A stretch of DNA of 64,000 nt from an uncultured Thermotogae bacterium (lineage in GTDB: Bacteria > Thermotogota > Thermotogae > MWEM01), in contig OY763325.1 in NCBI GenBank assembly GCA_963667315.1, forward strand, positions 1,826,380-1,890,379, read 5' to 3'. The notes under the pieces were generated by a model. The model worked only from the letters and a program-made list of their open reading frames with translations, was not told the DNA's origin and did not search any database. Shown piece after piece: positions 15,515 to 47,124 of the stretch (positions are counted from its first letter, which is position 1; each line of letters starts with the position of its first letter). The translations under genes and the position numbers were made by a program.

Positions 15515-15553
15515 AACACCGCTTCTCATTTCTGATAAATTTATGACATGATA

Positions 15554-15562
15554 TGTTATAAT
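15554..15562 (+). promoter_or_regulatory. Extended -10 element upstream of stand-alone X-domain gene 1
   Basis: TGTTATAAT; the same element is at 19571 before X gene 2, and TGATATAAT is at 12219 before the first island gene. Confidence 0.45.
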
Positions 15563-15631
15563 TATAAACGCGAGACAACTCATTTGAGAAACTGCAATTC
15601 GAAAAAAGACAAAAACAGCAAAGGAAGAACG

Positions 15632-16123: not shown

Positions 16124-16257
16124 AAACGCTCCAAATACCTCTGATTGGATGCTGAAAAGATGAGAACCATGTTACAATCAAAGGCCTGAGGAACGGAAAA
16201 TCTCGTTCGCTTCGAATGCACCTATTATCGCATGAAGGTATTAAAATTGAGCCAAGG

Positions 16258-17004
16258 ATGGAAACTGTGCCGGAAAGACATTTAACAGACAAAAAGATAA
16301 CATACTATATCAGATATCTCTCGGAAACCGCAGGAGATTCTTTTGATACGAAAACGATTGAAGAAATTCAGACTCATCTTAACGATTGTGATCGCTGTAT
16401 GGAAAGAGTTCACAACAGATATGAGATGGCAGCAAAGGCAGAGAATACAAATTTCAGCGGCGACGTCGAAGAAGAACGTGCAAAAATTTTCGAAACGGCA
16501 AAAAAACTGAAAGAGCTTTCACTTTCGGAAACGGAAATGTCCATGATAGACAGCATCCTTGAAAACGGAGATGATCTGGATGACAACGCCGTGCATGTCC
16601 GCTTTAAAACCTTCCCGCTCGCCGACCGGCTGTACAGCCGACTCGGTATCCTGAAATATTCCGAACTGTTTGAATATGAAAAAATGTGCGACTGGTCACG
16701 TGGTGACGGCAAAAGCCCTGTCGAGGACAATTTCATGAAAGTCATCACATCCGAAGAGGTCAAAAACACCATGGAAATCGAACTCAACGAAACGGAAAGA
16801 AGCCTGAGTGTCAGACTCATCAACGAAGAACAGGACTTCGCCCCGAGAATTGCCATGCTCAGGATCGATGATCAATACGGCAAAGACAATCTGAGAATTG
16901 CCGATGTACTCTACGACGGCATGACCAACAGCTTTGAATTTAAATTCGAAGACCTTGAACGGGGAAATTATTTCGTCTTTATAGAACCAAATTTTCAGGT
17001 TTAA
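16258..17004 (+). CDS. zf-HC2/ZAS-type anti-sigma-like protein with X domain (copy 2)
   Basis: HLTDKKITYYIRYL...THLNDCDRC; C-terminal KVITSEEV...PRIAML...FEDLERGNYFVFIEP. Confidence 0.72.
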   Translation: METVPERHLTDKKITYYIRYLSETAGDSFDTKTIEEIQTHLNDCDRCMERVHNRYEMAAKAENTNFSGDVEEERAKIFETAKKLKELSLSETEMSMIDSILENGDDLDDNAVHVRFKTFPLADRLYSRLGILKYSELFEYEKMCDWSRGDGKSPVEDNFMKVITSEEVKNTMEIELNETERSLSVRLINEEQDFAPRIAMLRIDDQYGKDNLRIADVLYDGMTNSFEFKFEDLERGNYFVFIEPNFQV

Positions 17005-17087
17005 AAACAAAAACATCAAATGGGGCAGTGAAGATGACTGTCCCTTTTTTATATCTATATTATTGTTATCCCGGGGAGTGGTTGACG

Positions 17088-19612: not shown

Positions 19613-20119
19613 ATGTTTAATAATCGAATAAAGAGGTACAGAATTTTGGTTGATCAAATAAAAAATAATACGATAGCTCCCTTTATAAACGATGTAAACA
19701 CACTCATCATCCATATGAAATCAAAAAAAGTTGGTTCAAGGTGCTCAAGTAGAATTGAGATGAGTTCATCTGAGTCTGTTTTTGATTATGTGACTATCTC
19801 TCGCAATACGAGAAGTTATGATAAAAAACGCGAGATTCAGTCATATCTCAACGTTATTACTTCCGATAGGATTAAACACAGAACGGAAGTCCAACTTCTT
19901 GAGGCTGAAAAAAGCATCATCGTTCGTATGAAGCGTGAAGAATATGAAAGATCACCAAGAATCGCCTTGATTCGAACCGACATTCGCCCCGAAGTAATAG
20001 AAAGAGTCCAGACAATGGATCCCGAATACAAAGATTTTGGAGATGTGTTTGAATACGTCTTTGATGATGTTGAAGAGGGAAGTTATTACCTCTTTATTGA
20101 ACCACTCTTTTTGTTTTGA
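19613..20119 (+). CDS. Stand-alone X-domain protein 2 (true start may be TTG 19646)
   Basis: NDVNTLIIHMKSKK...VITSDRIKHRTEV...PRIALIRTD...GSYYLFIEPLFL, highly similar to 15632. Confidence 0.75.
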   Translation: MFNNRIKRYRILVDQIKNNTIAPFINDVNTLIIHMKSKKVGSRCSSRIEMSSSESVFDYVTISRNTRSYDKKREIQSYLNVITSDRIKHRTEVQLLEAEKSIIVRMKREEYERSPRIALIRTDIRPEVIERVQTMDPEYKDFGDVFEYVFDDVEEGSYYLFIEPLFLF

Positions 20120-20301
20120 AATTAAAGAAAATCATAAAATAAACAGATCACCTGAAACGGAATTTATATAATTCCGTTTTTTTATTTCACGCTCCAGCTC
20201 TGGTGTATAATATTCCAGAAAACAACGTAATACGCTTCAGAGAATACTGCATCATTGTATATAATAAATAGAACAAACCCATTATTAATCGGAGGAAGGA
20301 C

Positions 20302-22565
20302 ATGGAAAATCCTTATATTCAGGAGCAAGTAGATCGAGCGAAAAAATAACTTCATGAAGAAAAACCGGAAAAGGCGCTTGTCATCTATGAGATGATTGAT
20401 CTTCTTGCTGCCCCTGAGATTCAGAAAGGTGTTGTTTTAAACGATATTGGATGGGGTTGTATAAGGAAGCTGAACAAAAATATAATAAAGTTTCAGAAAT
20501 TTATAAACAGAATAATTTTGAACCTCTTGAAAATTATATAGTGACATCTAATAATTCAGCTATCATATTACAGATACTAGGAGATTATTTTAAGGCAGAA
20601 AAAACATTTAAAAGAAATCTTGATAAAACCCATGAAAAGTATGGGAAAAAACTCCGAACTATATACAGTGAGAACAAATAACATTGGTTCTTTATTTTAT
20701 GAGATTGGGGATTTCATTAATGCCGAATGTTATTTTTTTAGAATCAAAAAAATCACAGAGATTCTTTTCGTTAAATTCTTAGTAAAATATATTCAGCTAT
20801 TAAATAATCTGTCAGATGCCTATAAACAACAAAAAGAATATTAAGAAGCTTTATTCTATTCAGAAAACACAGTAAATACTATGGAAGCTATAAAGTTTAC
20901 GAAAAACAAGTGCTATTTATAAGCATTAGAAAAATATTGTTGGTTATTAATAGAAACAAAAAGTTTTTCTCAAGCTACTAAATTATGTGCGAGAATAGAA
21001 ATACTATATACAAAATTTGATCATTATTCAGATTCAGGACAATAAAATTTCACTCTTCTATACGGATATTCTGCATGAAAAGGTTTTATCGTTATCTGAA
21101 AAAACAAAGATGAAGGATGTTTTCAAACTACCCTCGAGTCATTGAAAATAAAGAACAACATCTTTATCAATACCATTTTCACCTTCAACGAAAAACAAGC
21201 ACTTGAATTTTTGAGAATGATCAACAACGAATACAACAAACTTCTTTCTATCACAATTGACTATTTCCCACGATGATAACGAAAAAATTCGGGAAACCTA
21301 TCTGAATATCGTATTAAGTAAGACAATGATTCTGGAAATGACAATGATTCAAAATCGGCAGCTTGACAGGTATAAAAACTCGGATAATGCACATCAAAAA
21401 AGGTATATCCATGAGAACATCGTTGAAACGCTCAAACACAACGATTATTCCAAAATTATCACTCATTTGAAGGATAACAATGTTTTTCTGGATCTCTTCT
21501 ATCTGGATAAAACGGATAGATATGTGATGTTTGTTCTTTCTAAGCGTGAGCCAGTCAGATTAATATACTTCGGAAAAGGTACTGAACTTAATAGAACAAT
21601 GAAAAGAGAAAATTTCACCGAATGTTATCCGCAGATCTTTATCGCAGATTCTTCGGATTTCTCGATGAAAAAATACCGGAAAAGATCATCATCTCCACGT
21701 CAAATGAGATTTCACAACTTCCCTTTGAAACGCTTATAACACCGGATAATTTCTACCTTATCGAAAAAGCCACCGTTCAATATATCTCTACATTTAAAGA
21801 CTTTAACACTGAAATTGTATCCAAAACACAGAAAACACTTACGACCCGAATTTTGATTACCCTTTAAATCCGTCTACAAACCCTGATCCTGAAAACCCAG
21901 AGCAAGATGACGACAAAGGTTTATACAAAAGGCTCTCGGCAAGTAAGGTTGAAGGGGATAAGATAAGACTAATCCTGAAAGATTGGGAAATTTCAGAAAT
22001 ACTGGAAGGGGATAATGCAACTGATTTAAAAGTAAAGCAGATACCATCCAGTTACATCCTGCATATCTCATCACACGCTGTATACAGGGATAATAACAGT
22101 ACAAACAATATAAACCCGCTGAAAGACAGCGGTATTGTTCTTGCGGGTATTAATTCCCTCATTAAAGGAATAGAATTAAGCGAAGATGAAGCTAATGAAA
22201 TAGAAGATGCTGAACTGAATGCCTATGATATGACATTCATAGACCTCAAAAACACCGAACTGGTTGTTCTTTCTGCCTGCAACACAGGACTCGGCAAAAT
22301 AGTAAACGGAAACGGTGTCATAGGACTTCAAAGAGCCGTCCTGTTATCCGGGGCAAAGAAACTGATTATGTCACTCGGAGAAATCTCTGATACGGCAAGT
22401 ATGTTGTTGATGGAAAAATTTTACAGAAGATATCGGGAATCCCTTGATGTCGAAAAGTCTTTACGAGAGGCTAAACTTGCCATTATAAGGGAAAATATAA
22501 AGAAATATGGACATGCGGCTCCGTCCAGATGGGGAAGTTATGTCTGTTTAAGCAGGAGTTTTTAA
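20302..22565 (+). pseudogene. TPR-CHAT protease pseudogene (copy 3)
   Basis: ATG 20302 after GGAGG gives MENPYIQEQVDRAKK then TAA at 20347; homology resumes (LHEEKPEKALVIYEMID). Several stops and frameshifts split it into ORF fragments 20451, 20620, 21257, 21622 and 22230 (LSACNTGLG...RWGSYVCLSRSF). Confidence 0.9.
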
Positions 22566-22651
22566 GTGTGGGGGAACTTCAGATTTAATACTGCACTGTA
22601 TTCAGTGTATAATGTTTCCTGAGAAGATTATCAGATTTTTGGAGGTGGATT

Positions 22652-25123
22652 ATGGAGAATCCTTATATTCAGGAGCAAATGGACAGGGCTTTGAAATTAC
22701 TTAACGAAGAGAAACCGGATGAAGCGCTTGCCATTTATGAGATGATAGATCTTCGTTCGGCTGGTGAAATACAGAGGGCTGTGGTTTCGAATGATATTGG
22801 ATGGGCTTTTAAAAAGATGGGACTTTATAAGGAAGCTATGCAAAAATATCGTTTTGCACTTGATATCTATGAAAAGAACCATCGTGAACCTCTTGAGAAT
22901 TATATTGTAACATCCAATAATTTGGCTGTTCTGCTACACATAATCGGCGAATACAAGAAAGCGGAAGAAATATATAAACATAATTTAGATTTGGTATTGA
23001 CAAATCTCGGAGAGCGCTCAGAAACTTATGCTATTAAAATAAACAATCTCGGTTATTTTTATCTGGAAATCGGCAAATATGATATTGCAGAAAGGTTATT
23101 CATCGAATCAAAAAACTTACGAAAAGAACTTTTCGGTGAAAACTCTATTAAATACCTTCAAGGGTTAAACAACCTTGCAGGTTTGTACAAACAAAAAAAA
23201 GACTATGAAAAAGCTTTAGTCTATTTTAAGGAAACTGTCAGGCTCATGGAAGTTATTAAATTTACCTCCAATACACATTATTACAAGGCCCTTGAAAATC
23301 TTTGCTGGCTGTTTATCGAAATTGGCGAATACGAAGAAGCTACATCAATACTCAATAAAATCCATGAAGATTCTGATATAAACAAAGGTTATCAAACACT
23401 TGAGCAATCAAAACTTTTGCTGGATCATGTCCGGTTAAGTAGAAAGATAAATCACCCCGAAGATGCACTCAAAATGATTGAAGATTTGTCCGGATCGTAC
23501 AATGCAAATCAAACAATCAACACACTTTTTTATTCGGATATTCTATACGAAAAATCACACCTGCTTTCAGAAGTTGGTGACTTTGAAGCGGCTTTTCAAA
23601 CGAACCTTGTTTCGTTGAAGAATCAGAACGATATTTTCCTCAACACCTCCTTTTCTTTCAGCGAACATCAATCTCTCGACTTTCTCAGAAAGATCAACAG
23701 AGAATACAATCTAATCCTTAACCATCTCATAACACATTTCAGTACAGATCAGAACAAGGTCATGGAAACTTACTTAAATATCATTCTCAGAAAATCCATC
23801 ATTCTTGAGATGACGATGATTCAGAACATTCTGCTTAGACGTTTTGAATCAGATGATTTATCATCAGAAAATGTACAGGAACGTTTTAAAAAGGAATATA
23901 TCGACAAGCTTCTTCACGTTGATTATGAAAAAATTTTAAATCGGTTAGATAGTGAATCCTGGTTTCTTGATTATTATTACACAGATGAAAGTGATCAATA
24001 TATTCTGTTTCTCATCTCTCCTGATCAACCCATTCGGTTTATCAATCTTGGAAATGCAAGCGAAATTAACCGGCTCATTGACGCCTACAGAAACAGTATC
24101 CTGTGTGACAAAGACAGGGGGGCTCATCAGCGGCTTTCAATACAGCTTCTATCAAAACTGTTTCCCTTCGACGTTGAAAATCTCCCGAAAAAGATCATTA
24201 TTTCCCCCGTTAATGAGATATCCACATTACCTTTTGAAACCTTTTTGGATGAAGAAGGGTATTTTCTCATCGAAAAGACATTTGTGAAATATATTTCTTC
24301 AGTTAAGGACATTGTCCAAATCAAGAAGGCTCTTTCGCCTAAAACTGTTTCCATCGTTAGCAATCCCGATTTTGATTATCTCCTGGACAACGTTGAAAGA
24401 GATACCGAACCAAATTACACTCAACCATCTTCTGAAGCATTGAGTTACAGAGGTTCGGTATCAGATGATGATTATTTTAAGCGATTAAAGGGTATGGAGG
24501 TTGAAGGGGAGATCGTAGCCAAAATTCTTCAGGCAGCGGGGTGGCAGATTGACACTTTTCTCAGCGGACGAGACGCCTGCGTCTCCAAAGTGAAACAACT
24601 TAAAGACAGCAACATCATTCATATTATAAGCCATGGGTACACCACTATTCAGAGTCAATACAGCAAAAATCCACTTAAGGATTGTGGCCTGGTGTTTTCT
24701 GGAATCAATACGCTTTTGAGAAATGAGAAAACTATAAGTAAAACAGAAAAAGAAATCATCGAAGATGGTGTTCTCACCGCATATGATATGACTTTTATGA
24801 ATTTTGAAAACACAGAATTGATGGTCCTGTCCGCCTGCAATACGGGGCTTGGCAAAATTGAGAATGGAAACGGTATTCTCGGCTTTCAGCGTGCTGTCCT
24901 TTTGACCGGAGTAAAAAGACTTCTGATCACATTGTTCCAAGTCCCAGATCGGTACAGCTCTGAATTAATCGAAATATTTTATTCCGAATACATCATGAAT
25001 CACGATGCGGAATCAGCTTTGAGGAATGCCAAATTGAAGCTGATAGATCATTGTTATAAGACAATAGGGCATGCCGATCCGTATTTATGGGGAGGATATG
25101 TCTGCCTTTCAAGGAGTTTCTGA
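22652..25123 (+). CDS. TPR-CHAT caspase-like protease (copy 4)
   Basis: TPRs (INNLGYFYLEIGKYDIAE); HIISHG and LSACNTG motifs; LWGGYVCLSRSF end. Confidence 0.92.
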   Translation: MENPYIQEQMDRALKLLNEEKPDEALAIYEMIDLRSAGEIQRAVVSNDIGWAFKKMGLYKEAMQKYRFALDIYEKNHREPLENYIVTSNNLAVLLHIIGEYKKAEEIYKHNLDLVLTNLGERSETYAIKINNLGYFYLEIGKYDIAERLFIESKNLRKELFGENSIKYLQGLNNLAGLYKQKKDYEKALVYFKETVRLMEVIKFTSNTHYYKALENLCWLFIEIGEYEEATSILNKIHEDSDINKGYQTLEQSKLLLDHVRLSRKINHPEDALKMIEDLSGSYNANQTINTLFYSDILYEKSHLLSEVGDFEAAFQTNLVSLKNQNDIFLNTSFSFSEHQSLDFLRKINREYNLILNHLITHFSTDQNKVMETYLNIILRKSIILEMTMIQNILLRRFESDDLSSENVQERFKKEYIDKLLHVDYEKILNRLDSESWFLDYYYTDESDQYILFLISPDQPIRFINLGNASEINRLIDAYRNSILCDKDRGAHQRLSIQLLSKLFPFDVENLPKKIIISPVNEISTLPFETFLDEEGYFLIEKTFVKYISSVKDIVQIKKALSPKTVSIVSNPDFDYLLDNVERDTEPNYTQPSSEALSYRGSVSDDDYFKRLKGMEVEGEIVAKILQAAGWQIDTFLSGRDACVSKVKQLKDSNIIHIISHGYTTIQSQYSKNPLKDCGLVFSGINTLLRNEKTISKTEKEIIEDGVLTAYDMTFMNFENTELMVLSACNTGLGKIENGNGILGFQRAVLLTGVKRLLITLFQVPDRYSSELIEIFYSEYIMNHDAESALRNAKLKLIDHCYKTIGHADPYLWGGYVCLSRSF

Positions 25124-25181
25124 TTTAAAATTCCTGACCATGCTGAAAAATGAATAATTGGCACTATTTATAGGTGTCAAG

Positions 25182-25214
25182 AAAAAAGAATCCAAAATCA
25201 TGGATTCTTTTTTT
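25182..25214. terminator. Bidirectional-type terminator
   Basis: AAAAAAGAATCCA-AAATCA-TGGATTCTTTTTTT. Confidence 0.65.
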
Positions 25215-25356
25215 ATACATATGCTTGCTGATTTTTTAAAAAAAGAGGCTATATATAACTGTAAGCATAAGAGAGGGAAATATTAAAGTGCCTCATCGGG
25301 TTATGACAGTCACCGTGTTATCAAAAAACATAACATAACTCAGAGGAGGAAACAGT

Positions 25357-25674
25357 ATGATTAAAAGAAAAATCGTACTTTTAGTAACAATTGCAACGCT
25401 GGTGTTCGCTGGTTTCTCAGCGGCAAATGATCGGATGACTTCTTCAGAGGAACTGTCTTTTTTCCTGGATTCCACGGAACAAAGCTGGTTCAGAGTTCAA
25501 CTGGAAATGTCTGAATTTGACTGGTCCATTCAACCATTAAGCGCTGGTTCAACTTCAACAACAGATCCCGCCAGCAACAATGGCGGTCCTGGCGGGGAAG
25601 ATGACTGGTGGGTTAGTCTACCCACGAGTGATTTAAATCTGTTTGCTCTTAATTTATCCTGGCCGATAAATTAA
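25357..25674 (+). CDS. Small secreted protein, unknown function (105 aa)
   Basis: GGAGG RBS; signal peptide MIKRKIVLLVTIATLVFAGFSAA; acidic Trp-rich mature part; followed by a terminator; a decayed duplicate lies downstream. Confidence 0.75.
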   Translation: MIKRKIVLLVTIATLVFAGFSAANDRMTSSEELSFFLDSTEQSWFRVQLEMSEFDWSIQPLSAGSTSTTDPASNNGGPGGEDDWWVSLPTSDLNLFALNLSWPIN

Positions 25675-25760
25675 GAAAACACTATATGTCGGAAACATTA
25701 TAACACAGTGACACTGTACTAACCAAATGAGGTTACTTTTTGTTTTCCCTCATTATTATC

Positions 25761-25791
25761 TTCCCCCTTCTTTTGAAGGGGGAATTTTTTT
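25761..25791 (+). terminator. Rho-independent terminator
   Basis: TTCCCCCTTC-TTTT-GAAGGGGGAA followed by a T run. Confidence 0.8.
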
Positions 25792-25896
25792 ATTGAAGAC
25801 AAAAGTTAACTTATGCTATGATAACTTTACTTTCTATATTATCTAATATCTTTATTTTTAAAACAACTCTTTTTCTTTATAAAAAGGAGGAGAGGG

Positions 25897-26130
25897 CTGA
25901 TAAAGATCCTTTATAATCCTAACAACTATAGTTTTGATTTACTGATTTCTCAACAGCAAATGACCGGATAAATTCTTCAGAGGAATTATCGTTTTTCTGG
26001 ATTCTCCGAAACAAAGCAAATTCAATATTCAATCGGAAATGTCTGAATTCGACCAAGCAATTCAACTTTTGAGAACTGGGCCAGGAGCAACTACTACACC
26101 CAGAATAATTGGTAAAAACAATAGGATATG
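25897..26130 (+). pseudogene. Decayed duplicate of the 105-aa secreted protein
   Basis: DNA homology: TTTCTCAACAGCAAATGACCGGATAAATTCTTCAGAGGAATTATC...GAAATGTCTGAATTCGAC versus TTTCTCAGCGGCAAATGATCGGATGACTTCTTCAGAGGAACTGTC...GAAATGTCTGAATTTGAC; strong AAGGAGG RBS but no ATG, with frameshifts. Confidence 0.75.
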
Positions 26131-26803
26131 AGCATTCTGTTTTAATCTATCTTTATCAGAACTCTTTTACAAATACATAAACGAAGAACAAACGGTGGTT
26201 TCAGAGTATTTCCTGAAAATTAAACTTGAAAGCCCCCATCAGTAACGTTCTGATTATATTTCAGTTAATATCACACCCGATCTCAAGATATAAATTTTAA
26301 CATTAGATATTTCCCCACCCATTTTTTAAGTTTATCTGTGGGAATCATTATCATGATACTACAATGATTTTTGTTAATATTTTTTGAACACTCATCTTGG
26401 AATTACAATACAATAATTCACGTACAATATTTTTTTTCAGTTCAACTATAAGAATATGTAAGTAAAAAAGAGCAAAATTGAAAATGCAGAACATAATGCA
26501 GATAATTTCAAATGATATATGATCAGCTACACCAAAATCTAAGGAGGTAAAACAATGCAGAAAAGAAGGAGAAACATGAGTATTTGCTTTATACGCTGGA
26601 AAGTGAGAGAAAGATTGATGATCATTAATGGGTATTTATCTCAACTTTCACATCACTCTTATTTTAGCAAAAAAATAATTGACCCATTTCTTCCTATCTT
26701 TGTAGACGAAACTACGACTTAAGGTTTTAAGATTCCGGTTCGTGTTTCTGGAAATTAATGTACCATACCCGGCGAAAAAAAAACTTAAAGGAGGAAGATT
26801 TGA

Positions 26804-27211
26804 ATGCTCACACAATTAAATGAAGAACAGAAAATGATTTATTTTATGTATTTACTAGGCATTGGATTAGAGTCTATTGACGCAAGAGATTTACAGAAAA
26901 TCGAGGAATTTTTATTCAAACACAAAGAATACTATGAGGACATCAAGAAAGAATTTCAGATTATCCAGAGATTATTTGAAGTAAAAATCAAAACTCTAGC
27001 TGAGGAAAATTTATCCTTTGAAAAAATGGATAGCTATGATAGAGAGGAGGTGACTATAATGTTTGACTATTGGAAAAATTCTCCTCCCCACTCTTCAAAT
27101 AAAGAAAAAGATTATATCATAATCAAGTGCCCTCTGGGTTATGAAGAAGATGATGATTGCTTAATTGTAAAAATCCCTAAAAAAAGAGTTGAAAAAAAAT
27201 TTACTGCATAA
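26804..27211 (+). CDS. Truncated anti-sigma-like protein with degenerate zinc site
   Basis: QLNEEQKMIYFMYLLGIGLESIDARDLQKIEEFLFKHKEYYE aligns to CLDDREKNIYFQYLSGINLKSIDAAELMRIEMHLFECKECYE of 30037, with H/C/C lost. Confidence 0.65.
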   Translation: MLTQLNEEQKMIYFMYLLGIGLESIDARDLQKIEEFLFKHKEYYEDIKKEFQIIQRLFEVKIKTLAEENLSFEKMDSYDREEVTIMFDYWKNSPPHSSNKEKDYIIIKCPLGYEEDDDCLIVKIPKKRVEKKFTA

Positions 27212-27426
27212 TTCATAAGATTTCTATCTGTTCCCTTGTCCTGATTTAAAATTTCAAAATCTCTAAGGAGGTTGATTTTATGGCTGTTTAAATTCGTTCT
27301 AATTACCAATTACAAATAACAACGGGTATATACATTAGTACCAAATCGAGAATATAAGTATCTTAACTTAACCATTCTAAATTTGGCTCTTCCAGGCATT
27401 ACCGGAAAAGTCTCAAAGGAGGGACT

Positions 27427-28665
27427 ATGAGAAAAAACGACTTAAGAAGTGATGATTTTGATCCCCATGAGAGTAAAGAGTATTTAATAATCTCATTGAG
27501 GGAACAATTTCTGAACAAATACTACAGATTATGGAGAAATAAGAATCAACAAGTATCAATACGGAATCTAAAAAAGATTTCTGCAAACAGATTCAAAACA
27601 GAGGCAGAGCAGAATCTTGCTTATACAAGGTTGGCACAGGATTTTGGTTTTGATGAAAAAGCTAGTGAAACAGAAAATACTCTTCAACTGACTAAAGATT
27701 TTGTTTATTACTTTGCCAATGATTTTTTCAAAACCGTTGTGTTAAGTTTGACGGACAAGCAAATGAAGAAATATTTTTTCGAGCTTGATGAAAGAAAGGA
27801 AAAAATATTCGATCCGGTGAAAAACAAACTTTTATTGTTTTTCACCGCGTTGGGAAGCAATTCTGCTTTAGCATGTTTAATAAAAGATAATTCAAGCATG
27901 ATTAAAGGCGTTTTCATGAAGCAATCAAGTAAACATGTAAAAAATGAAGTGATGGATGTAATCACTCATTATTGGGCTCTGTTGAGAGAAATCAGTAAGA
28001 CTTTCAAATATTATTTCCCCCAAAAACCTATGGGATGGTTCATTAAATGTATCAAAACTGAGCTGTTTAAGAAGAATTACATCATTGAGATTAATCCTAA
28101 TTCTTCTCAGATAGATGAATCCACAGAAGATCCAATAGAGATAAATGAAAATATTAATGTCCGTAAAAACGGATTCGGGAGACAGAATCCAGACTCAATT
28201 GCATTCTGGCAACTTATCGGAGAAGAATTTTTTCGGATAATTTTGTTAGATACAAACTATGGATATGTCTGGAAAAGGCTTAATTATGTATTGAAACTTT
28301 TTGATTTTAAACCTAGTGACGTGCTAATAGATTATCATGACAAAACAATAGCCGATATAGTTGAAAAGATTAAAGAGTGGTTAAGTGATATTCTTTCATT
28401 GGATGATGATGAATTAAAAATACTTTTTGAGGTAATCGAGGTTGAGATTCATAAAACCATCCCCGATACCGTTCCAATTAAAGATCATAAAACGTGGAAA
28501 ACATTAAAAGAATTTCAAAATTCATCTATTCCAATCAAAGATTTGCGCTTAACCCTCTTCGTTCAGGATGAAAATCCAACAATTCTTTCTGGCTGGAATG
28601 CCAGACTTGCGAAACGTTTAAAAAAGTTTCTCAAAAATTCCGGTTATGATATAAACGACTTTTGA
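27427..28665 (+). CDS. Divergent sigma-70-like protein (paralog 1)
   Basis: Degenerate region-2-like segment (ALACLIKDNSSMIKGVF...DVITHYWALL...PMGWFIKCIK); shares W-x6-kl..f.p..i and the terminal LSxW..rl.krL motif with 30929 and 32080. Confidence 0.5.
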   Translation: MRKNDLRSDDFDPHESKEYLIISLREQFLNKYYRLWRNKNQQVSIRNLKKISANRFKTEAEQNLAYTRLAQDFGFDEKASETENTLQLTKDFVYYFANDFFKTVVLSLTDKQMKKYFFELDERKEKIFDPVKNKLLLFFTALGSNSALACLIKDNSSMIKGVFMKQSSKHVKNEVMDVITHYWALLREISKTFKYYFPQKPMGWFIKCIKTELFKKNYIIEINPNSSQIDESTEDPIEINENINVRKNGFGRQNPDSIAFWQLIGEEFFRIILLDTNYGYVWKRLNYVLKLFDFKPSDVLIDYHDKTIADIVEKIKEWLSDILSLDDDELKILFEVIEVEIHKTIPDTVPIKDHKTWKTLKEFQNSSIPIKDLRLTLFVQDENPTILSGWNARLAKRLKKFLKNSGYDINDF

Positions 28666-28683
28666 TTTCAATCTTCCCCTTCT

Positions 28684-28710
28684 AGCCCGTGACTCAAACG
28701 GGCTTTTTTT
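28684..28710 (+). terminator. Rho-independent terminator
   Basis: AGCCCGT-GACTCAA-ACGGGCT followed by a T run. Confidence 0.75.
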
Positions 28711-28762
28711 CCAAGATAACATTTCTTTATTTTTCATTAAATAATGTAATACCAAGGCCCTC

Positions 28763-28804
28763 TTTTTCTTTTTATCCAACTTTTAGAGTGCACTTCAATT
28801 CCCC
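28763..28804. repeat. Imperfect ~42-bp direct repeat, copy 1
   Basis: TTTTTCTTTTTATCCAACTTTTAGAGTGCACTTCAATTCCCC; partner at 33410. Confidence 0.65.
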
Positions 28805-28998
28805 CTATTTAATAGTATAATCACATATAAATAAAAACAAGAAAGCATTTAACTTAAAATCTCTTCCACAGCCTTTTACGTTAATATTGTTTTACTCATC
28901 AAAACAATATATTTTTCTCTCTTCCATCTTGCAATATTCTTTGTTTTTTTTTCTACAAAAAAGTAGAGACATATTTTAACAGAAGGGGTTGAAGAAAT

Positions 28999-29712
28999 AT
29001 GAACGGAAAACAATTACTAAGCAATTCGATTTATATTTTCATTGATTTTAAGTTTGGAGAATTTCTTGAGAAAGCAGGTTTGAAACGAAACAACTTACTC
29101 GTCAATACTAATAATTTTCTTAAAAAGGTCGAAAAAGTCGATGGTTTTTATTTCCCAAAAGCTAGTTTAATTGACCTGAACAGCTGGATGCCCACAGTCA
29201 CTGAAAAGAGCAAGTTTAATCATTTTGCCGCATTACAAATTTTGGGATTTCAAAACCTCGAAAATTATTTCATTGATCTTGAAACGGAGAAAGAAATCCT
29301 AAACACTGTATTTCAAGGGAATTCTGGCCCCCCTTGGTGGATTATTTGCTATATTGGTTATGCTTGTAAATTTTCATCACAACTAATCGTAGAACATTTA
29401 AAAGGGAAAAAACTTGAGGAGGTTTACCGGAAGTTTAGGGGTGGGGTCAACCAGGATATTTTCACCCTTTTTGGTAATGATTCAAAAGAATTATTCTCGA
29501 AACTCGAATCAGATCTCAATCAAACACTTGAGTACAATTTAAGCGTAAATAATTTAGAAAAGAAGAAGCATTTTTATCCGTTCAAAGATACCCGTTCAGG
29601 TGATATAAATTTTGATATTTTATTCCAAAGTGAAGAACCATCAGATTTGATCATTGAGTGGATTTTTAACCTCGCCTATAATGCATCAAAGATATATATT
29701 AAAACACATTAA
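28999..29712 (+). CDS. Short paralog of the sigma-like proteins lacking the region-2 segment
   Basis: QLLSNSIYIFIDFKF ~ ELLSRSIYMEFRLKY (32080); PPWWIICYIGYACKFSSQLIVEHL ~ YPWQMICFLLKIIGYRPKSIVDQF; PSDLIIEW ~ PSKSVSEW. Confidence 0.55.
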   Translation: MNGKQLLSNSIYIFIDFKFGEFLEKAGLKRNNLLVNTNNFLKKVEKVDGFYFPKASLIDLNSWMPTVTEKSKFNHFAALQILGFQNLENYFIDLETEKEILNTVFQGNSGPPWWIICYIGYACKFSSQLIVEHLKGKKLEEVYRKFRGGVNQDIFTLFGNDSKELFSKLESDLNQTLEYNLSVNNLEKKKHFYPFKDTRSGDINFDILFQSEEPSDLIIEWIFNLAYNASKIYIKTH

Positions 29713-30036
29713 GATACCCTTGCGTTTTTAACAACATGATCACTTATTGTTTTTCATTTTTTAACACTTATGAGTGCGGATTTTATCATTTCAAATACTA
29801 TATATAGTATCTAAAAAAGGAGTGATCATGTTGGCTATGTATATATTTAAAAGTTCTGAAATCGCTTTAACCGACGTTAAAAAATGGAATATTTTATTCC
29901 TATCGAATTTTCAGATTTTAACTTTGAAACCCACTTAATATTCTTCTCCAGATTAAGTATTTTTAATACAAATATCTTTGACTTTTGTATTATTTCTTTT
30001 CATAAAGATTTGATTCGGATCATTAATAATTAAGGG

Positions 30037-30735
30037 GTGACTTGTATGAATGAAAACTGTTTGGATGATCGTGAGAAAAACATATACTTCCAGTATTTGT
30101 CAGGAATTAATTTAAAATCTATAGATGCTGCAGAACTTATGCGGATAGAAATGCATCTATTTGAATGCAAAGAATGCTATGAACAGGTAAAAAAAGAATA
30201 TAAACTCATTAAATTTCTTCAGAACTGGTCATTTGAAGGACACGCTCAAACAGTTAAACTTTTCAATTTCATTGAAAATTTGAGAAATTACTACGAAGAG
30301 GAAAATGACGAAAAGAAAAAAAATTTAATTGAGAAATTACTTCAATCTGACTTTGATTATCGCGGAAGAGGTTTTGATGAATTTCTGAATAAACGTAAAG
30401 AAAAAGAGACTTTTAAATTCAAATATTTCTTTACAATAGAAGTGGAAAAAACCAAAGAAAATTCACAAAAACTAAAAATTTTAGATGAAAAAAAATCGGC
30501 TGAAGAATTCGTCTTATGCTATAAAGATAATTATCTCTTGATCAAATCTAGAACTGACAATTTTGCTGGAACCGATACACCTTTTGGGATATTGTCTTCT
30601 GTCAACAAAGAGAATAATTATCTAAAATTAAAGCAATTTACTCCAACAGACGAAAGTCCTCAATTATCCTTTTTATGTCTAACTCCTGGAAGATATAATC
30701 TGTATATTGAGGAGAATATTTCAGCTAGCAAATAG
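30037..30735 (+). CDS. zf-HC2/ZAS-type anti-sigma-like protein with X-like C-terminus (copy 3)
   Basis: MHLFECKECYE (HxxxCxxC); C-terminal SFLCLTPGRYNLYIEE resembles F.DL..G.Y.lfIE. Start may be ATG 30046. Confidence 0.7.
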   Translation: MTCMNENCLDDREKNIYFQYLSGINLKSIDAAELMRIEMHLFECKECYEQVKKEYKLIKFLQNWSFEGHAQTVKLFNFIENLRNYYEEENDEKKKNLIEKLLQSDFDYRGRGFDEFLNKRKEKETFKFKYFFTIEVEKTKENSQKLKILDEKKSAEEFVLCYKDNYLLIKSRTDNFAGTDTPFGILSSVNKENNYLKLKQFTPTDESPQLSFLCLTPGRYNLYIEENISASK

Positions 30736-30928
30736 GAACTGGAGGGGGTTAAAGTTAAATGCTAAGTCATAAATCGTGCAGTGTAGAGTTTTCTGCGTAT
30801 TTCGGCTATTCTTGACTGACATAGAGCCGTTCAAGGAGCTGAGTTTCATAAATGTTAAAATGAAATACCGTCTCAGTCTTTTATGTTCTATATGTCACTC
30901 AAGTATTGATTGTGTGAGGTGAAGTTAA

Positions 30929-31996
30929 ATGAACATAGAAATGCGGAAGTATTTACTTCAAAGCTTTATCAAGTTTTTCATTTTAAATCATTCTGAACTT
31001 CTAAGGCGTTTTTCAGATGACGAAGAAATTGTTAATCTTTGTTTTAAAGAGGTTTTAAGTGTTCTCAGCGATCAGGAAATAGAAGTTTTATGCAATGATC
31101 CACAAAAAAGATTTGATTTACTGAAGCTCGAAAGAGTTAACGATAGGATATATTTCGAGTTAATAAAACAAGGGAATCATAATGCGATTTCTGACTTAAT
31201 GAAATCCTATACACCTCAGATCAGATTCTATTTCTATAGTTTACTCGGAAAAAAATTCATTTACTGCAACAGAAATATTGTGAATGATGTAATTGATTCT
31301 GAATGGTGTAAACTTTGGCTTTACAGAGAGAATTATGATTACTCAATTGCCAGTTTCGTTACTTATTTCATCCGCATAGTCTATAATGCTTTGCGCGAAA
31401 TTGAAAGAAAACTTTCTAATGATGCTCAGGTTATTATATGGCTTTCTTCCAAGAAGAAGACAGAAAATGTGTTTATTGATGATCCTATTGAGTATCTTGG
31501 TTTTAGAAATTGCGCATTATGTCCACGGACACCAGAAAATATATGTGTGGATTACCATGAAGGACAAATTGTTTTAGGGTATTTATTTAAAACGAGATTA
31601 GCACCTGTTTGGAAAATCATTTTATATGGAATTATGATCAGTAATTACAAGATCGGTTATATTGTTCAAGAGCTTTCTGAACATAATATGTATCAGTTGT
31701 TGAGTATTTTGAAAACAGAAATCTCAAACACTCTTCCTGAATCTGTTGACTATTTATCATGGCTCTTCAGAGAAATACATGAAGATATTGAACAAACACC
31801 ATCTGATTTATTTTCAAAATTCGGGGGCAAATCAGATAAGAAAATAGCACAATATACCCATATTCCTGTGAAACATATAAAACTGAAAGATTTGATCAAG
31901 GGGGAACAGACTTTAAGTAACTGGAAGTTTGCAATAAAAAGGACATTAAGAAAGCATCGTCTACGTCAAATTATCGAAGAAAAAGTTTTTTTTTAG
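30929..31996 (+). CDS. Divergent sigma-70 (ECF-like) protein (paralog 2)
   Basis: Region-2-like NAISDLMKSYTPQIRFYF...DVIDSEWCKLWLYRENYDYSIASFVTYFIRIVYNALRE. Confidence 0.6.
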   Translation: MNIEMRKYLLQSFIKFFILNHSELLRRFSDDEEIVNLCFKEVLSVLSDQEIEVLCNDPQKRFDLLKLERVNDRIYFELIKQGNHNAISDLMKSYTPQIRFYFYSLLGKKFIYCNRNIVNDVIDSEWCKLWLYRENYDYSIASFVTYFIRIVYNALREIERKLSNDAQVIIWLSSKKKTENVFIDDPIEYLGFRNCALCPRTPENICVDYHEGQIVLGYLFKTRLAPVWKIILYGIMISNYKIGYIVQELSEHNMYQLLSILKTEISNTLPESVDYLSWLFREIHEDIEQTPSDLFSKFGGKSDKKIAQYTHIPVKHIKLKDLIKGEQTLSNWKFAIKRTLRKHRLRQIIEEKVFF

Positions 31997-32079
31997 ACAA
32001 GGAATTACGTTTTTAATGTCTTTTCCTGTACTATCCCTCCATTTGTATGGCGGGGTAGTACAAAAAGGGGGGCGTAACA

Positions 32080-33150
32080 ATGAATAGCAATTCTGATTGT
32101 AAAAGAGATAAATATACTGCAAGAGAACTTCTTTCGCGAAGTATTTATATGGAGTTCAGACTGAAATACAAAAAGCTATTGACACCATCAGCACAAACTG
32201 AGGAAGAAAAAAAGAATATTATGTCTTCACTAAGAGAAGTTGTAGAAACTATAGTCAGGCAACTCAGCGACAAAGAAGTTAATTATTACATAGATAACAT
32301 CGACGATAGAAAGAAATTAGCTAATCGAATTAGGGATTATGCGCTTCTTTCCCTAGGAAGTGAAAATAAGGTTTTGGCAACAACACTTCTGATCAAACTC
32401 TACTCTGGATTTATCAGAAAGGTAGCTTTGCATACTTATTTAGATTATGAAATATCATTGAACTCGAATTCTTTCGAAGAAGTTGTTACTGATGTAATCT
32501 CAAAACTCTGGACAATTCGAAACACATATAATCCAATAAAAGGTACGTTTTCAACTTGGCTGGCAGCAATAATCCGAAATAATATCAGACACAATCAACT
32601 TGTTAGAAATAGAGTTTCATTAATTAGTTTGGATAAAAATTCAAATGATTCTGATTTTGATGATTTTGAAAATTATATTTATCAAATAGAAAGTCAAAAA
32701 TTGTTCACCTCTCCCGATGTGATTTTTGCAATAGAGTATTACGCGGAATCTGTTTTTATTGAGATATTTAAGGAACCAGTATCCTATCCGTGGCAGATGA
32801 TTTGTTTTTTGTTAAAAATAATAGGATACAGACCAAAATCTATTGTTGATCAATTCTCTGACTTAACACTCAGCCAGATTACAAAAAGTTTAAAAACAGA
32901 CTTTAAAATAATCAGTCGGTTTGAAAATGCTTTTATTGATAAATCTTTTGAACCATTTGAATCTAATTTAGAAATTAAGTTAAGTTCCGAGAATTCCCCA
33001 ACTTTTTATTACAAAAATCTTAAACTTTTTATCGGAAAAAGAACTGGTGACATTGAGTTGAATAATTTTTTTGGTAAATCACCTTCAAAATCTGTCAGTG
33101 AGTGGGCTTTAAAAGTCAGTCATAAATTGAGTTTAAAATTTGCAGAATAA
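32080..33150 (+). CDS. Divergent sigma-70 (ECF-like) protein (paralog 3)
   Basis: Clearest region 2: LLIKLYSGFIRKVA...FEEVVTDVISKLWTIRNTYNPIKGTFSTWLAAIIRNNIR. Confidence 0.7.
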   Translation: MNSNSDCKRDKYTARELLSRSIYMEFRLKYKKLLTPSAQTEEEKKNIMSSLREVVETIVRQLSDKEVNYYIDNIDDRKKLANRIRDYALLSLGSENKVLATTLLIKLYSGFIRKVALHTYLDYEISLNSNSFEEVVTDVISKLWTIRNTYNPIKGTFSTWLAAIIRNNIRHNQLVRNRVSLISLDKNSNDSDFDDFENYIYQIESQKLFTSPDVIFAIEYYAESVFIEIFKEPVSYPWQMICFLLKIIGYRPKSIVDQFSDLTLSQITKSLKTDFKIISRFENAFIDKSFEPFESNLEIKLSSENSPTFYYKNLKLFIGKRTGDIELNNFFGKSPSKSVSEWALKVSHKLSLKFAE

Positions 33151-33409
33151 ATAAACTACTCATTCTTTAACTTTTCAAATTTAAGGTAAATATGGTCATT
33201 CTGGCTAATCTGGAACTTATTTCTAAAACTCAATTTGCTGAGGTTGCTTATCCTCATCACCTTAGAATGCATATGTGGATAACAAATTATTTATGTACTA
33301 AAAAAAGGGATTGGATCAAGGAAAATTAATCAGATACAGGTTAAAATTCTAACGGTATTTTTATTTATGATAAAATCCCTATTGAACCTTCATTTTTAAC
33401 TTAAAGGAT

Positions 33410-46844: not shown

Positions 46845-47071
46845 CCTCTTCTCACACCCTTTTTATAAATTCTTTTATGATCAAAACCGCCTTTAATTAT
46901 CTTGTTTTGCAAGATTATACCTTATTTATGTTAATTTTTTAGCACATTATACTACGATGATTTGATCCATAAAGATGCAGAATACCCTGAAGCATTAAGA
47001 ATAAGGAATCACAGCGATACACGGTACCGATTGTTCATGGCGTTGAGATAAATAAAATTTTCACCCAAACT

Positions 47072-47105: not shown

Positions 47106-47124
47106 GCAAAAAAATTATTATCCC

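Follow-up and report, generated by a model that had tools for sequence, protein, structure and literature searches.

Known and proposed protease-linked regulation of ECF-type sigma factors

The type III-E Craspase system comprises Cas7-11, the TPR-CHAT protease Csx29, Csx30/Csx31 and an ECF-like sigma factor (CASP-sigma/RpoE). Craspase cleaves Csx30, and this proteolysis is thought to release CASP-sigma (PMC10028731; summarised in bioRxiv 10.1101/2023.06.23.546230). That preprint also summarises the type III CRISPR system CalpL-CalpT-CalpS, in which the cA4-activated Lon-SAVED protease CalpL cleaves the anti-sigma CalpT and the ECF sigma factor CalpS is released. In Myxococcus xanthus, the ECF sigma factor DdvS is partnered by DdvA, a transmembrane ZAS anti-sigma with its own periplasmic TPR-CHAT, and CHAT-mediated cleavage of the anti-sigma has been proposed there too (PMC11506125). 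Kaur et al. 2021 describe conflict systems in which caspases are linked to ECF sigma factors, among them EACC2-caspase neighbourhoods and TRADD-N fused to an ECF-like HTH (PMC8195603). Finally, in ECF41, ECF42, ECF238 and other ECF groups with C-terminal extensions, and in sigmaI-like proteins (sigma2 followed by sigmaI-C), an ECF-type sigma2 precedes a non-standard or extended C-terminal part.

We analyzed a stretch of 64,000 nucleotides (the window) that carries four sigma-like genes, here called A to D. At a probability of about 0.55 for the reading as a whole, we consider A to D to be paralogous members of a rare, unnamed and uncharacterized family of ECF-like sigma proteins with a conserved C-terminal module (C-module). 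Together with a soluble ZAS-type anti-sigma-like protein and a CHAT (caspase-like) protease, this family would make up a signalling module of three genes, which has been multiplied and rearranged here inside a fast-diverging, low-GC island; its mode of action is discussed below in conditional terms.

The likeness to the type III-E system lies in the genetic coupling of a cytoplasmic TPR-CHAT protein to an ECF-like sigma and a sequestering protein, but the window contains no Cas7-11 ORF and no CRISPR repeat array, the sequestering protein is a ZAS-type anti-sigma rather than Csx30, and the sigma has a C-module in place of sigma4. With CalpL-CalpT-CalpS, the locus would share a protease that cuts a soluble anti-sigma and frees an ECF-type sigma; here, in contrast, the protease is a CHAT cysteine protease, there is neither a cyclic-oligoadenylate sensor domain nor CRISPR linkage, and the C-terminal domain of the sigma is different. 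As in DdvS/DdvA, a ZAS domain, TPR-CHAT and an ECF sigma form one regulatory unit. In DdvA, however, anti-sigma and TPR-CHAT are joined in a single membrane protein whose active site is incomplete, and RseP cleavage follows, whereas in the window each is a protein of its own, no membrane segment is predicted and the His-Cys dyads are complete; DdvS has canonical sigma2 and sigma4. The systems of Kaur et al. resemble the locus in co-encoding a caspase-superfamily protease with an ECF sigma, with a predicted transcriptional output, but their constant parts are EACC2 and a DUF1822 TPR protein instead of a ZAS anti-sigma and CHAT, and the part of that paper examined holds no description of the C-module or of the three-gene module.

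Four sigma-like genes and their sigma2 region

Four ORFs begin exactly where an earlier note on this DNA had placed them (Table 1), and a scan of all stop-to-stop ORFs identifies these same four, and no others, as C-module ORFs in the window. Their mutual similarity, judged from sequence, is well above chance (BLASTP E-values of 2e-8 for A-C, 8e-8 for A-D, 9e-9 for C-D, 1e-5 for B-D and 0.011 for B-C). Scored with an HMM for which all input sequences were family members from other organisms, the C-module reaches 117 bits in D, 70 in A, 55 in C and 52 in B. The pairs of C-terminal motifs quoted earlier are all present, though they had been listed in reverse gene order (YPWQM.../SVSEW in D, PVWK.../TLSNW in C, YVWK.../ILSGW in A and PPWW.../LIIEW in B), and the spacing between the W-containing motif and the terminal W motif, put earlier at 70-90 aa, measures ∼80 aa. 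The conserved Trp pair is ∼104-108 aa apart (W238/W342 in D, W282/W390 in A). The likeness is less strong for the proposed common N-terminal helix (E = 0.04 between B 3-27 and D 14-38), but this helix recurs in other long family members.

Table 1. Sigma-like, anti-sigma-like and CHAT genes of the island (positions in the window).
Feature	Position	Strand	Length (aa)	Description
p252	12322-13080	+		soluble anti-sigma-like; ZAS HLADCERC (HxxxCxxC), F.Y....RG linker, C-terminal domain ending G.Y.LFIEP; 285 bits
TPR-CHAT protease 1	13109-15514	+	801	Pfam CHAT 1e-51 plus TPR; His-Cys dyad intact (VHIATHG, IVLSACET)
p191	15548-16123	+		anti-sigma-like paralog without ZAS; linker and C-terminal domain; 84 bits, HMM positions 93-245 only
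p262	16216-17004	+		soluble ZAS-type anti-sigma-like (HLNDCDRC); 283 bits
TPR-CHAT protease 2	17028-19508	+	826	Pfam CHAT 1e-51; dyad intact (IHIVTHG, VVLSTCES)
p168	19613-20119	+		second anti-sigma-like paralog without ZAS; 87 bits, HMM positions 110-245
CHAT pseudogene	20350-22565	+		degraded fourth TPR-CHAT gene; at least 7 frame fragments; seven collinear CHAT HMM matches
TPR-CHAT protease 3	22652-25123	+	823	Pfam CHAT 2e-48 plus TPR; dyad intact (IHIISHG, MVLSACNT)
as1	26804-27211	+	135	anti-sigma-like; N-terminal domain only; Zn motif lost (EEFLFKHKEY); 26 bits, HMM positions 9-68
A	27427-28665	+	412	sigma-like; long N-terminal extension, degenerate sigma2-like region, C-module residues 253-404
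B	28999-29712	+	237	without sigma2; N-terminal helix, ∼60 aa of other sequence, C-module residues 87-234
as2	30037-30735	+		full-length soluble ZAS anti-sigma-like (HLFECKEC); 253 bits; weak Pfam zf-HC2, NCBIfam RsrA-like
C	30929-31996	+	355	sigma-like; sigma2 residues 69-162, C-module residues 201-345
D	32080-33150	+	356	sigma-like; best-preserved sigma2 residues 81-171, C-module residues 211-353

The ECF-like character proposed in the earlier note is borne out. The family profile matches sigmaE and SigW with E-values of 5e-17 to 1e-15 (5e-17 for sigmaE of the PDB), and hhalign aligns it to canonical ECF sigma factors (99.4%) from sigma2 through the linker to the first sigma4.1 helix. Structure prediction followed by Foldseek, which had been proposed as a check, matched region 2 of sigmaE to the D model (4lup_A, TMt 0.76, rmsd 2.3 Å), while the C-module gave no sigma4 match; the full-length AF2 model of D is of moderate quality (pLDDT 70). 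Among A to D, the family sigma2 profile scores D at 58 bits and C at 48 bits, and D alone, with 30 bits, exceeds the Pfam Sigma70_r2 cut-off of 24. C has weak NCBIfam ECF matches; its ortholog is annotated as 'sigma24 family protein' by JGI. NCBIfam CAS_III-E_sigma gives weak matches that do not extend beyond sigma2 (E = 0.18 for D, 2e-4 for the sequence P0008). A matches neither Pfam nor the family sigma2 profile, with which its ortholog reaches just 14.6 bits, and yet its BLASTP alignments to C and D (∼1e-8) cover the sigma2 region. B lacks sigma2, as noted before.

C and D look like the only competent sigma subunits of the four. A and B, with a degenerate and a missing sigma2, are most likely partners or modulators acting via their C-modules, since other organisms encode module-sigma2-module fusion proteins. 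For B, where a dominant-negative or anti-anti-sigma function had been suggested, these fusion architectures and the sigma2-module-module proteins instead point to a partner or modulator that works by module-module contact.

The C-module and its relation to sigma4

The typical family member consists of a canonical sigma2, an acidic linker and, where sigma4 usually sits, a conserved eight-helix C-module of ∼150 aa, which all four of A to D carry at the C-terminus. Its consensus is GYP[WH]Q...KP.EIV..LSD ... F.PL ... D..TR ... vG.T.L..YYGK.P..NISDW..+V++R. An exhaustive HMM search returned 222 representative clusters; the family is thus not private to these four genes, and it is linked to CHAT proteases and to anti-sigma-like genes of the ZAS type. 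The C-module is present in 143 of the 152 family sequences examined; among the 148 scanned with Pfam, 99 match Sigma70_r2 and only 8 match Sigma70_r4_2. These eight are probably the 8 of the 9 sequences lacking the module in which a canonical sigma4 motif is plain to see. The module also occurs alone and in tandem, in sigma2-module-module and four-module proteins as well as in the fusions mentioned above. One family member matches Pfam TRADD-like_N.

How does this module relate to sigma4? The AF2 model is a single compact domain (pLDDT 93.1, pTM 0.86). No likeness to sigma4 was detected by Pfam, NCBIfam, a PDB sequence profile or hhalign (0.3%), and Foldseek against PDB and BFVD found no sigma4-like fold. 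Likewise, there is no SigI model or fold match (Pfam, NCBIfam, Foldseek) and no SnoaL, TPR or Cys-rich extension, which separates the family from the ECF groups with extensions. Because the sigma4 position misses the Pfam model, the family would fall outside the ECF classification, as SigI does (PMC7826278). Resemblance to sigma4 is limited to the first four helices, in their lengths (20, 11, 8 and 15 aa, with loops of 5, 4 and 4 aa) and in motif spacing: the conserved Pro of 'YPWQ' precedes 'IV' by 18-20 aa, the same as 'LP' to 'EIA' in canonical ECF sigma factors (alignment read by eye). Across 171 modules, the helix at the position of the sigma4 recognition helix is net acidic (−1.0), in contrast to a basic terminal helix with the W motif (+2.4). 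A sigma4-like four-helix core inside a larger domain and a replacement domain suit this evidence about equally well. Since no sigma4 likeness was found, binding of the beta-flap and the −35 element is putative, and these proteins may not be true initiation factors.

It is possible, though we think it unlikely, that these are ordinary ECF sigma factors whose first four module helices form a compact divergent sigma4, fused to a C-terminal regulatory extension of ∼75 aa that tunes activity in cis, with a regulatory W-motif helix, much like the extensions of ECF41, ECF42 and ECF238. Such extensions are a known class of 19 groups (PMC7826278), the helix pattern and spacing just described would fit, the profile alignments to sigmaE reach through the first sigma4.1 helix, and Foldseek matches the D model to the sigmaE chain 1or7_B over 210 columns, more than sigma2 alone. 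Against this reading, neither sequence nor fold shows a detectable match to sigma4, the putative recognition helix is acidic, the model is one domain rather than a core with an appendage, and the module exists alone and in tandem; moreover, extension-bearing ECF groups typically lack an anti-sigma (PMC7826278), whereas the C-module family nearly always has one.

The split or expanded sigma4 of the earlier note holds in that the C-terminal part is non-canonical and enlarged, but the split itself was not demonstrated. We consider it improbable that the W-containing segment represents sigma4.1 and the first HTH helix, with NISDW..+V++R as a sigma4.2 recognition helix displaced by an insert of ∼70-90 aa. 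The charges speak in its favour, as no helix but the terminal one is clearly basic; the hydrophobic/basic pattern of this helix resembles the canonical GTVKSRL.RAR..L helix (alignments read by eye), and in a single domain of 150 aa it would be predicted to pack on the N-terminal helices. Yet hhalign does not match this helix to sigma4.2, and the literature examined offers no precedent for a permuted or split sigma4.

A conserved three-gene locus and a putative protease switch

Of 13 distinct loci for which enough sequence was available, from Thermotogota MAGs and other metagenomes, 12 have the order sigma-like, soluble HxxxCxxC anti-sigma-like, CHAT. In several loci consecutive genes overlap by 4 nt; in some, CHAT is fused to Clp_N/AAA and not to TPR. 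The island in the window holds the same components, a context that the earlier note had missed: six anti-sigma-like genes, three intact TPR-CHAT genes and one CHAT pseudogene, which lie just upstream of the four sigma-like genes. It consists of two units of anti-sigma, CHAT and ZAS-less paralog, followed by the CHAT pseudogene, TPR-CHAT protease 3, and two units that each comprise an anti-sigma and two sigma-like genes. The sigma-like genes do not adjoin CHAT genes, and the gene order is unlike that of the canonical module. p168 is a duplicate of p191, with a unit period of ∼3.99 kb (direct repeats D4 and D9), and the pseudogene contains repeat families D1-D3, D5 and D8, Pfam CHAT matching its fragment 22230-22565. 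as1 lies directly upstream of A and is 53% identical over its first 53 aa to as2, which lies directly upstream of C and D.

The His-Cys dyad is preserved in each of the three intact CHAT proteins. The anti-sigma-like proteins are characterized by HxxxCxxC and, in the linker, by a conserved F.Y....R[GN] motif (alignment), and reading of their sequences by eye predicts no membrane segment; for p252, no Pfam or NCBIfam model fits. In as2, Lys replaces Arg at the putative cleavage site. The island has a GC content of 31%, against ∼44% in the flanks. Compared with the sister genome L001, island proteins show 44-74% identity and flanking proteins 96-99.6%. A and B are intact in both genomes (51% identity for B). 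No shared promoter motif was found in the window, where a single conserved 21-nt block is unique.

The hypervariability of the island between near-identical genomes would also suit proteins that are not initiation factors but CHAT effectors or substrates in a conflict or abortive-infection system; after release or processing, they would bind the RNA polymerase core via sigma2 and, for want of a working sigma4, jam host transcription. Related loci are rich in caspase-family proteases, one with type I restriction genes, in a type III-B system a sigma factor is itself the target cut by PCaspase (bioRxiv 10.1101/2023.06.23.546230), neither sigma4 nor a DNA-binding signature was detected, and A and B persist despite their sigma2 defects; even so, we judge this reading a long shot, for genuine ECF sigma factors are classically controlled by a ZAS-type anti-sigma, most members have a well-conserved sigma2, no toxic effector domain was found in the C-module, and no relative turned up on viral contigs. 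No PADLOC model matches, so a defence role is a suggestion drawn solely from the hypervariability and the caspase-rich neighbourhoods.

For the three-gene signalling module, our preferred reading, the following sequence of events may be envisaged. The sigma-like protein would be kept inactive by the anti-sigma-like protein until the CHAT protease is switched on by a signal sensed via its TPR (or Clp_N/AAA) part. The protease would then cut the anti-sigma linker, possibly, as a guess, at the conserved Arg-Gly that follows F.Y, and the freed sigma-like protein would bind RNA polymerase via sigma2 and either redirect or block transcription. Most likely, then, CHAT would cleave the anti-sigma and so free the sigma-like protein, which would make the module a CRISPR-independent analogue of Craspase/Csx30/CASP-sigma and of CalpL/T/S. 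The organisation of the locus suggests a protease-triggered transcription switch.

Four sigma-like paralogs and their sigma2 domains

The four open reading frames described earlier as one family of sigma-like proteins, here A, B, C and D (see the table), proved exact in their coordinates, and the motifs quoted for them were all found, although they had been listed in reverse gene order. BLASTP gave pairwise E values of 2e-8 (A-C), 8e-8 (A-D), 9e-9 (C-D), 1e-5 (B-D) and 0.011 (B-C). To avoid circularity, we trained HMMs of the sigma2 domain and of the ~150-aa C-terminal domain at the sigma4 position (the C-module) only on family members from other organisms. The C-module HMM scored 117 bits on D, 70 on A, 55 on C and 52 on B, and a scan of all stop-to-stop ORFs found the module in exactly these four ORFs of the window. 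BLASTP and the independent HMMs thus support the claimed paralogy, and the four proteins are, by these sequence comparisons, distant but genuine paralogs. Chance similarity and decaying pseudogenes were ruled out, as the four ORFs, though ~50% diverged between two genomes, are unbroken in both.

Sigma-like, anti-sigma-like and CHAT genes of the island, with amino acid identity to the orthologs on the sister-genome contig L001
Feature	Coordinates	Strand	Description	Identity to L001 ortholog
CHAT1	13109-15514		intact TPR-CHAT, His-Cys dyad
CHAT2	17028-19508		intact TPR-CHAT, His-Cys dyad
TPR-CHAT pseudogene	20350-22565		at least 7 collinear frame fragments, between second CHAT unit and CHAT3
CHAT3	22652-25123		intact TPR-CHAT, His-Cys dyad
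CHAT (compared with L001)				52%
as1			anti-sigma-like protein	44%
A	27427-28665	+	412 aa; C-module at residues 253-404	48%
B	28999-29712	+	237 aa; C-module at residues 87-234	51%
as2			anti-sigma-like protein	74%
C	30929-31996	+	355 aa; C-module at residues 201-345	59%
D	32080-33150	+	356 aa; C-module at residues 211-353	65%

The sigma2 domain (regions 2.1-2.4) is one of the features that define group 4 (ECF) of the sigma70 family. Among the four proteins D alone passes the Pfam Sigma70_r2 model (30 bits vs GA 24), while the family sigma2 profile recognizes both D (58 bits) and C (48 bits). The same profile finds no match in the window's A, whose ortholog scores 14.6 bits, or in B, in agreement with the earlier proposal that B lacks sigma2; for A, the only sign of a sigma2 is BLASTP homology to C and D across this region. 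With NCBIfam, the ECF matches of A-D are all sub-threshold and restricted to the sigma2 half, six other family members match the sigma2 half of ECF models alone, every equivalog and subfamily model scores far under its cut-off, and there is no dedicated model for the family. The family profile matches sigma factors of the PDB, including sigmaE, SigW and SigH, with E values down to 5e-17, in alignments that end past the first helix of sigma4.1. Comparison with canonical ECFs by hhalign gives 99.4% over sigma2, the linker and that first sigma4.1 helix. The AlphaFold2 model of full-length D is of moderate quality (pLDDT 70), and its best Foldseek matches in the PDB are ECF sigma factors (1or7_B, probability 0.95; 4lup_A over sigma2, TMt 0.76, rmsd 2.3 A).

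The C-module and its relation to sigma4

In a sigma factor, the -35 element and the beta-flap are contacted by sigma4 (regions 4.1-4.2), a helix-turn-helix. In the family consensus, a typical ECF sigma2 and an acidic linker are followed by the C-module, with the consensus GYP[WH]Q..(Y/W)KP.EIV..LSD..L ... F.PL ... D..TR..L...vG.T.L..YYGK.P..NISDW..+V++R. The sigma4 models of Pfam and NCBIfam match none of A, B, C and D, hhalign gives merely 0.3% between the C-module and sigma4, and the C-module profile returns only chance matches from PDB sequences. AlphaFold2, run on the C-module alone with a 33-sequence alignment, yields a confident model of eight helices (pLDDT 93.1, pTM 0.86), for which Foldseek finds no real match in the PDB (best E 2.6, probability 0.03) and, with PDB and BFVD taken together, no match above a probability of 0.13. 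Structure prediction combined with Foldseek recovered sigma2 on D but matched no sigma4 to the confident C-module model.

Inspection by eye gives a different impression: helices 1-4 of the C-module (20, 11, 8 and 15 aa, with loops of 5, 4 and 4 aa) fit the sigma4 pattern, and the spacing from its Pro to 'IV' equals that from 'LP' to 'EIA' in the canonical domain. This helix-length pattern and motif spacing, the only features that point to a very divergent sigma4 core, resemble what a compact, divergent sigma4 with a regulatory extension would show. The earlier note had instead proposed a split or expanded sigma4; in its split form the basic terminal helix would be the recognition helix, and the charges across 171 modules are in keeping with this, since the helix that occupies the sigma4 recognition position has a net acidic charge (-1.0), and the basic charge lies on the terminal W-motif helix (+2.4). 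Against both explanations stands the failure of Pfam, NCBIfam, hhalign, the PDB profile search and Foldseek to match the C-module to sigma4. From these non-matches, the sigma4-like helix and spacing features and the helix charges we therefore conclude that the C-module is a replacement domain or else a sigma4 core so remodelled within a larger domain that it is no longer recognizable. The two sigma4 explanations depart from the reading we prefer, in which the C-module stands at the sigma4 position, solely in the origin of the module. The earlier interpretation thus holds in part: the ECF-like nature of the proteins (by profile, hhalign and Foldseek), their non-canonical C-terminal end and the one sigma2-less member stand, and the scheme as a whole is only partly supported.

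The wider family came to light solely through an exhaustive profile HMM search, which gave 222 representative clusters at E <= 1e-3 (53 at E <= 1e-10). Word-indexed protein searches returned only sister-genome orthologs, from one other organism, and with the C-module profile a single fragment; a scan of viral contigs found no relatives. The C-module is present in 143 of the 152 sequences examined, and eight of the nine that lack it show a canonical sigma4 motif. Pfam detects Sigma70_r2 in 99 of 148 members and Sigma70_r4_2 in only 8. Set beside each other, these counts suggest that the C-module and a recognizable sigma4 are mutually exclusive; judged from totals rather than sequence by sequence, the eight Sigma70_r4_2-positive members are probably those without a C-module. 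When Pfam was applied to long family members in search of informative fusions, it found sigma2 alone. The modules themselves occur in fusions, with the order module-sigma2-module in at least seven representatives (P0034, P0044, P0058, P0085, P0098, P0112, P0130), sigma2-module-module in two (P0047, P0107) and four modules in P0082, a protein of 845 aa that has no Pfam match. By analogy with these fusions we argue that B would be a partner or modulator acting through module-module contact with a sigma2-bearing paralog, with an activating role as admissible as an inhibitory one.

Two known types of sigma factor were considered and rejected. SigI-like factors carry a sigmaI-C domain after sigma2 and are paired with an RsgI-type anti-sigma. 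No SigI model appears among the NCBIfam matches, and the Foldseek comparison of the C-module with the PDB, which matched nothing, reveals no sigmaI-C-like fold, provided that this PDB copy holds sigmaI-C; unlike a SigI-like system, moreover, the island has anti-sigma-like proteins of the zinc (ZAS) type without a predicted membrane segment. An extension of the ECF41/42 type was dismissed because the sigma-like proteins have neither SnoaL nor TPR. The ECF Hub classification, whose group-specific HMMs rest on the sigma2 + sigma4 core, demanded Pfam matches to both domains, and ECF-like proteins whose sigma4 escapes the Pfam model, such as SigI, were excluded from it (PMC7826278). The present family would fail the two-domain requirement, and this exclusion would explain why it has no ECF group.

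A hypervariable island of anti-sigma-like proteins and CHAT proteases

The region from ~12.3 to 33.2 kb is a single system, a context that the earlier note had missed, and its order is [p252-CHAT1-p191] [p262-CHAT2-p168] [CHAT pseudogene] [CHAT3] ... [as1-A-B] [as2-C-D]. The first two units form a tandem duplication of ~3.99 kb. Pfam identifies the CHAT domain of caspase-like cysteine proteases (clan CD) in the three intact ORFs with E values of 1e-48 to 1e-52, and fragments of the fourth, inactivated copy are visible as ORFs at 21257-21739 and 22230-22565.

The other six genes (p252, p262, as1, as2, p191 and p168) encode one anti-sigma-like family, with no predicted membrane segment in any member. 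The full-length proteins p252, p262 and as2 have an N-terminal HxxxCxxC motif, a linker with F.Y....R[GN] and a C-terminal domain ending in G.Y.L.hEP; the zinc motif is kept in these three and in nearly all homologs at other loci, and as2 gives weak matches to Pfam zf-HC2 and NCBIfam RsrA. In as1 a ZAS-like N-terminal domain is all that is left, and its zinc ligands are gone, as they are in the L001 ortholog; p191 and p168 lack the entire ZAS domain. With as1 immediately preceding A-B and as2 immediately preceding C-D, gene adjacency points to these two as co-encoded, putatively cognate anti-sigma factors. With its zinc site lost, the sigma2 of A degenerate and B devoid of sigma2, as1-A-B looks like a degenerate copy of as2-C-D, and it is conserved in both genomes despite this degeneration.

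Type III-E CRISPR-Cas loci place Cas7-11 (gRAMP) and a CRISPR array beside TPR-CHAT, Csx30/31 and a sigma factor. No CRISPR repeat array occurs in the 64 kb window, whose large ORFs are a GH38 mannosidase, M26/GLUG-like, HD-GYP and CHAT proteins; with neither an array nor Cas7-11 in the window, a type III-E locus was rejected. PADLOC-DB 2.0, which contains no model for any of these components, gave weak generic TPR matches to CHAT1 and none to the sigma-like and anti-sigma-like proteins.

Other genes of the window were recorded in passing. A 105-aa protein with a signal-peptide-like N-terminus (25357-25674) is followed by a degraded second copy at ~25890-26130 (direct repeats D11 and D15, 71-84% identity), and the L001 protein at its position has no detectable similarity to it. 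Four tandem paralogous genes for proteins of ~700-730 aa occupy 52342-61338; both scanned paralogs have a terminal HD_5 domain of the HD-GYP type and may therefore be cyclic-di-GMP phosphodiesterases. On the minus strand, 44781-50283 encodes two large proteins (687 and 1052 aa) with GLUG motifs and/or an M26 peptidase N-terminal-like region, and GC skew is strongly negative (-0.23 to -0.25) across this stretch.

The 400-kb JGI metagenome contig L001 has this island too, at the corresponding chromosomal site. We compared window ~20000-33400 with L001 1-10980, where L001 terminates within the CHAT genes. Six flanking genes, including those for fumarase, CN-hydrolase, radical-SAM, MCP and PfkB proteins, encode products 96-99.6% identical to those of L001; in contrast, the island proteins, all from intact ORFs, are just 44-74% identical. 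The GC content is ~31% in the island vs ~44% around it, and on the right the island ends somewhere between the D stop (33150) and the gene for fumarase beta (33462). The same architecture, with diverged alleles between conserved flanks, fits diversifying selection or allele replacement, as in defence or conflict loci.

Blocks upstream of as1 and as2 are conserved in L001. The 21-nt block TTCCGGTTCGTGTTTCTGGAA at 26733-26753, a candidate operator, promoter element or RNA hairpin with imperfect inverted-repeat ends, is followed at 26760-26780, ~50 nt upstream of as1, by TACCAYACCCGG; the as1 block is the same in L001 although the neighbouring proteins are ~45% identical. We found no second copy of the 21-nt block and no promoter motif common to the units in the window, and the two elements stand 3 nt further apart in one of the two genomes than in the other. 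Because the block is unique in the window and the spacing unequal between the genomes, no promoter was called. The segment upstream of as2 at 29774-30036 is ~82% identical to L001, above the sequence-level conservation of most island proteins, and contains a conserved small ORF of 36-54 aa (49 aa in L001), the perfect palindrome ACTATATATAGT, the palindrome TTAACYGASGTTAA and a hairpin of AATACAAA and TTTGTATT.

Related loci, identified with a five-sequence sub-alignment, lie in Thermotogota MAGs and metagenome contigs, where a sigma-like gene, an anti-sigma-like gene and a CHAT gene follow each other in tight, operon-like order. This order is found at 12 of 13 distinct loci, counted after collapsing duplicates and requiring enough downstream sequence. 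Consecutive genes frequently overlap by 4 nt, and in nearly every related locus the anti-sigma-like gene follows the sigma-like gene. Loci of the 'GYPHQ'-motif subfamily have in third place a gene for CHAT fused to Clp_N or Clp_N + AAA, not TPR. In the single exception, the L007 type, a CHAT gene lies at a distance of 8 kb upstream, with two WD40-caspase genes in the vicinity; another related locus adjoins type I restriction genes. Further caspase-family genes lie near the sigma-like/anti-sigma-like pair (L007, 3760-6759 and 15522-18329; L017, 4575-7115), and the extra genes around such pairs encode WD40-Peptidase_C14, PPC-Peptidase_C14 and giant proteins with FGE-sulfatase domains. These neighbourhoods are generally rich in caspase-type proteases.

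A proposed protease-controlled sigma module

These gene contents suggest the following sequence of events. The anti-sigma-like protein would sequester the sigma-like protein until CHAT is switched on by a signal perceived through its TPR (or Clp_N/AAA) part. The protease would then cleave the anti-sigma within its linker, where the conserved Arg-Gly is a candidate site, and the released sigma-like protein would engage RNA polymerase through sigma2. Alternatively, the sigma-like proteins may be RNAP-binding effectors or direct CHAT substrates rather than initiation factors. In the most far-reaching reading, to which we assign a probability of only about 0.3, the C-module would be a new RNAP- or promoter-binding substitute for sigma4 that defines a new class of the sigma70 family (sigma2 plus a non-sigma4 domain); stand-alone CHAT would free the sigma-like protein by cutting a soluble ZAS anti-sigma, in the manner of Craspase and CalpL but independently of CRISPR, within an island that is hypervariable and of the conflict type; and sigma2-less copies such as B would pair module-to-module with sigma2-bearing ones.

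The logic proposed for this system, protease-controlled sigma/anti-sigma signalling, is already known in kind. CalpL/CalpT/CalpS (bioRxiv 10.1101/2023.06.23.546230) and Craspase/Csx30/CASP-sigma (PMC10028731; bioRxiv 10.1101/2023.06.23.546230) are precedents for sigma release triggered by a protease. The DdvA anti-sigma bears its own TPR-CHAT domain (PMC11506125), and a link between ECF sigma factors and caspases had been noted computationally (PMC8195603). The more important finding is the wider, uncharacterized sigma-like/ZAS anti-sigma/CHAT module, which is multiplied here into a hypervariable island. Because the triad is compact and soluble and its predicted partners are clear, assays of binding, of cleavage and of transcription in vitro could test it directly.

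Type III CRISPR (CalpL/T/S, Craspase/CASP-sigma) and the DdvA/DdvS defence regulon have recently turned out to use the release of ECF sigma factors under protease control as an output. If our reading is true, Thermotogota MAGs and metagenome contigs of unknown taxonomy would harbour the same release logic in three genes that stand on their own. The contrast between 44-74% identity within the island and 96-99.6% in its flanks makes the island a natural example of a regulatory system that diversifies fast. If confirmed, a sigma-like protein in which sigma4 has been replaced, or remodelled until unrecognizable, would bear on the minimal architecture of a sigma factor.
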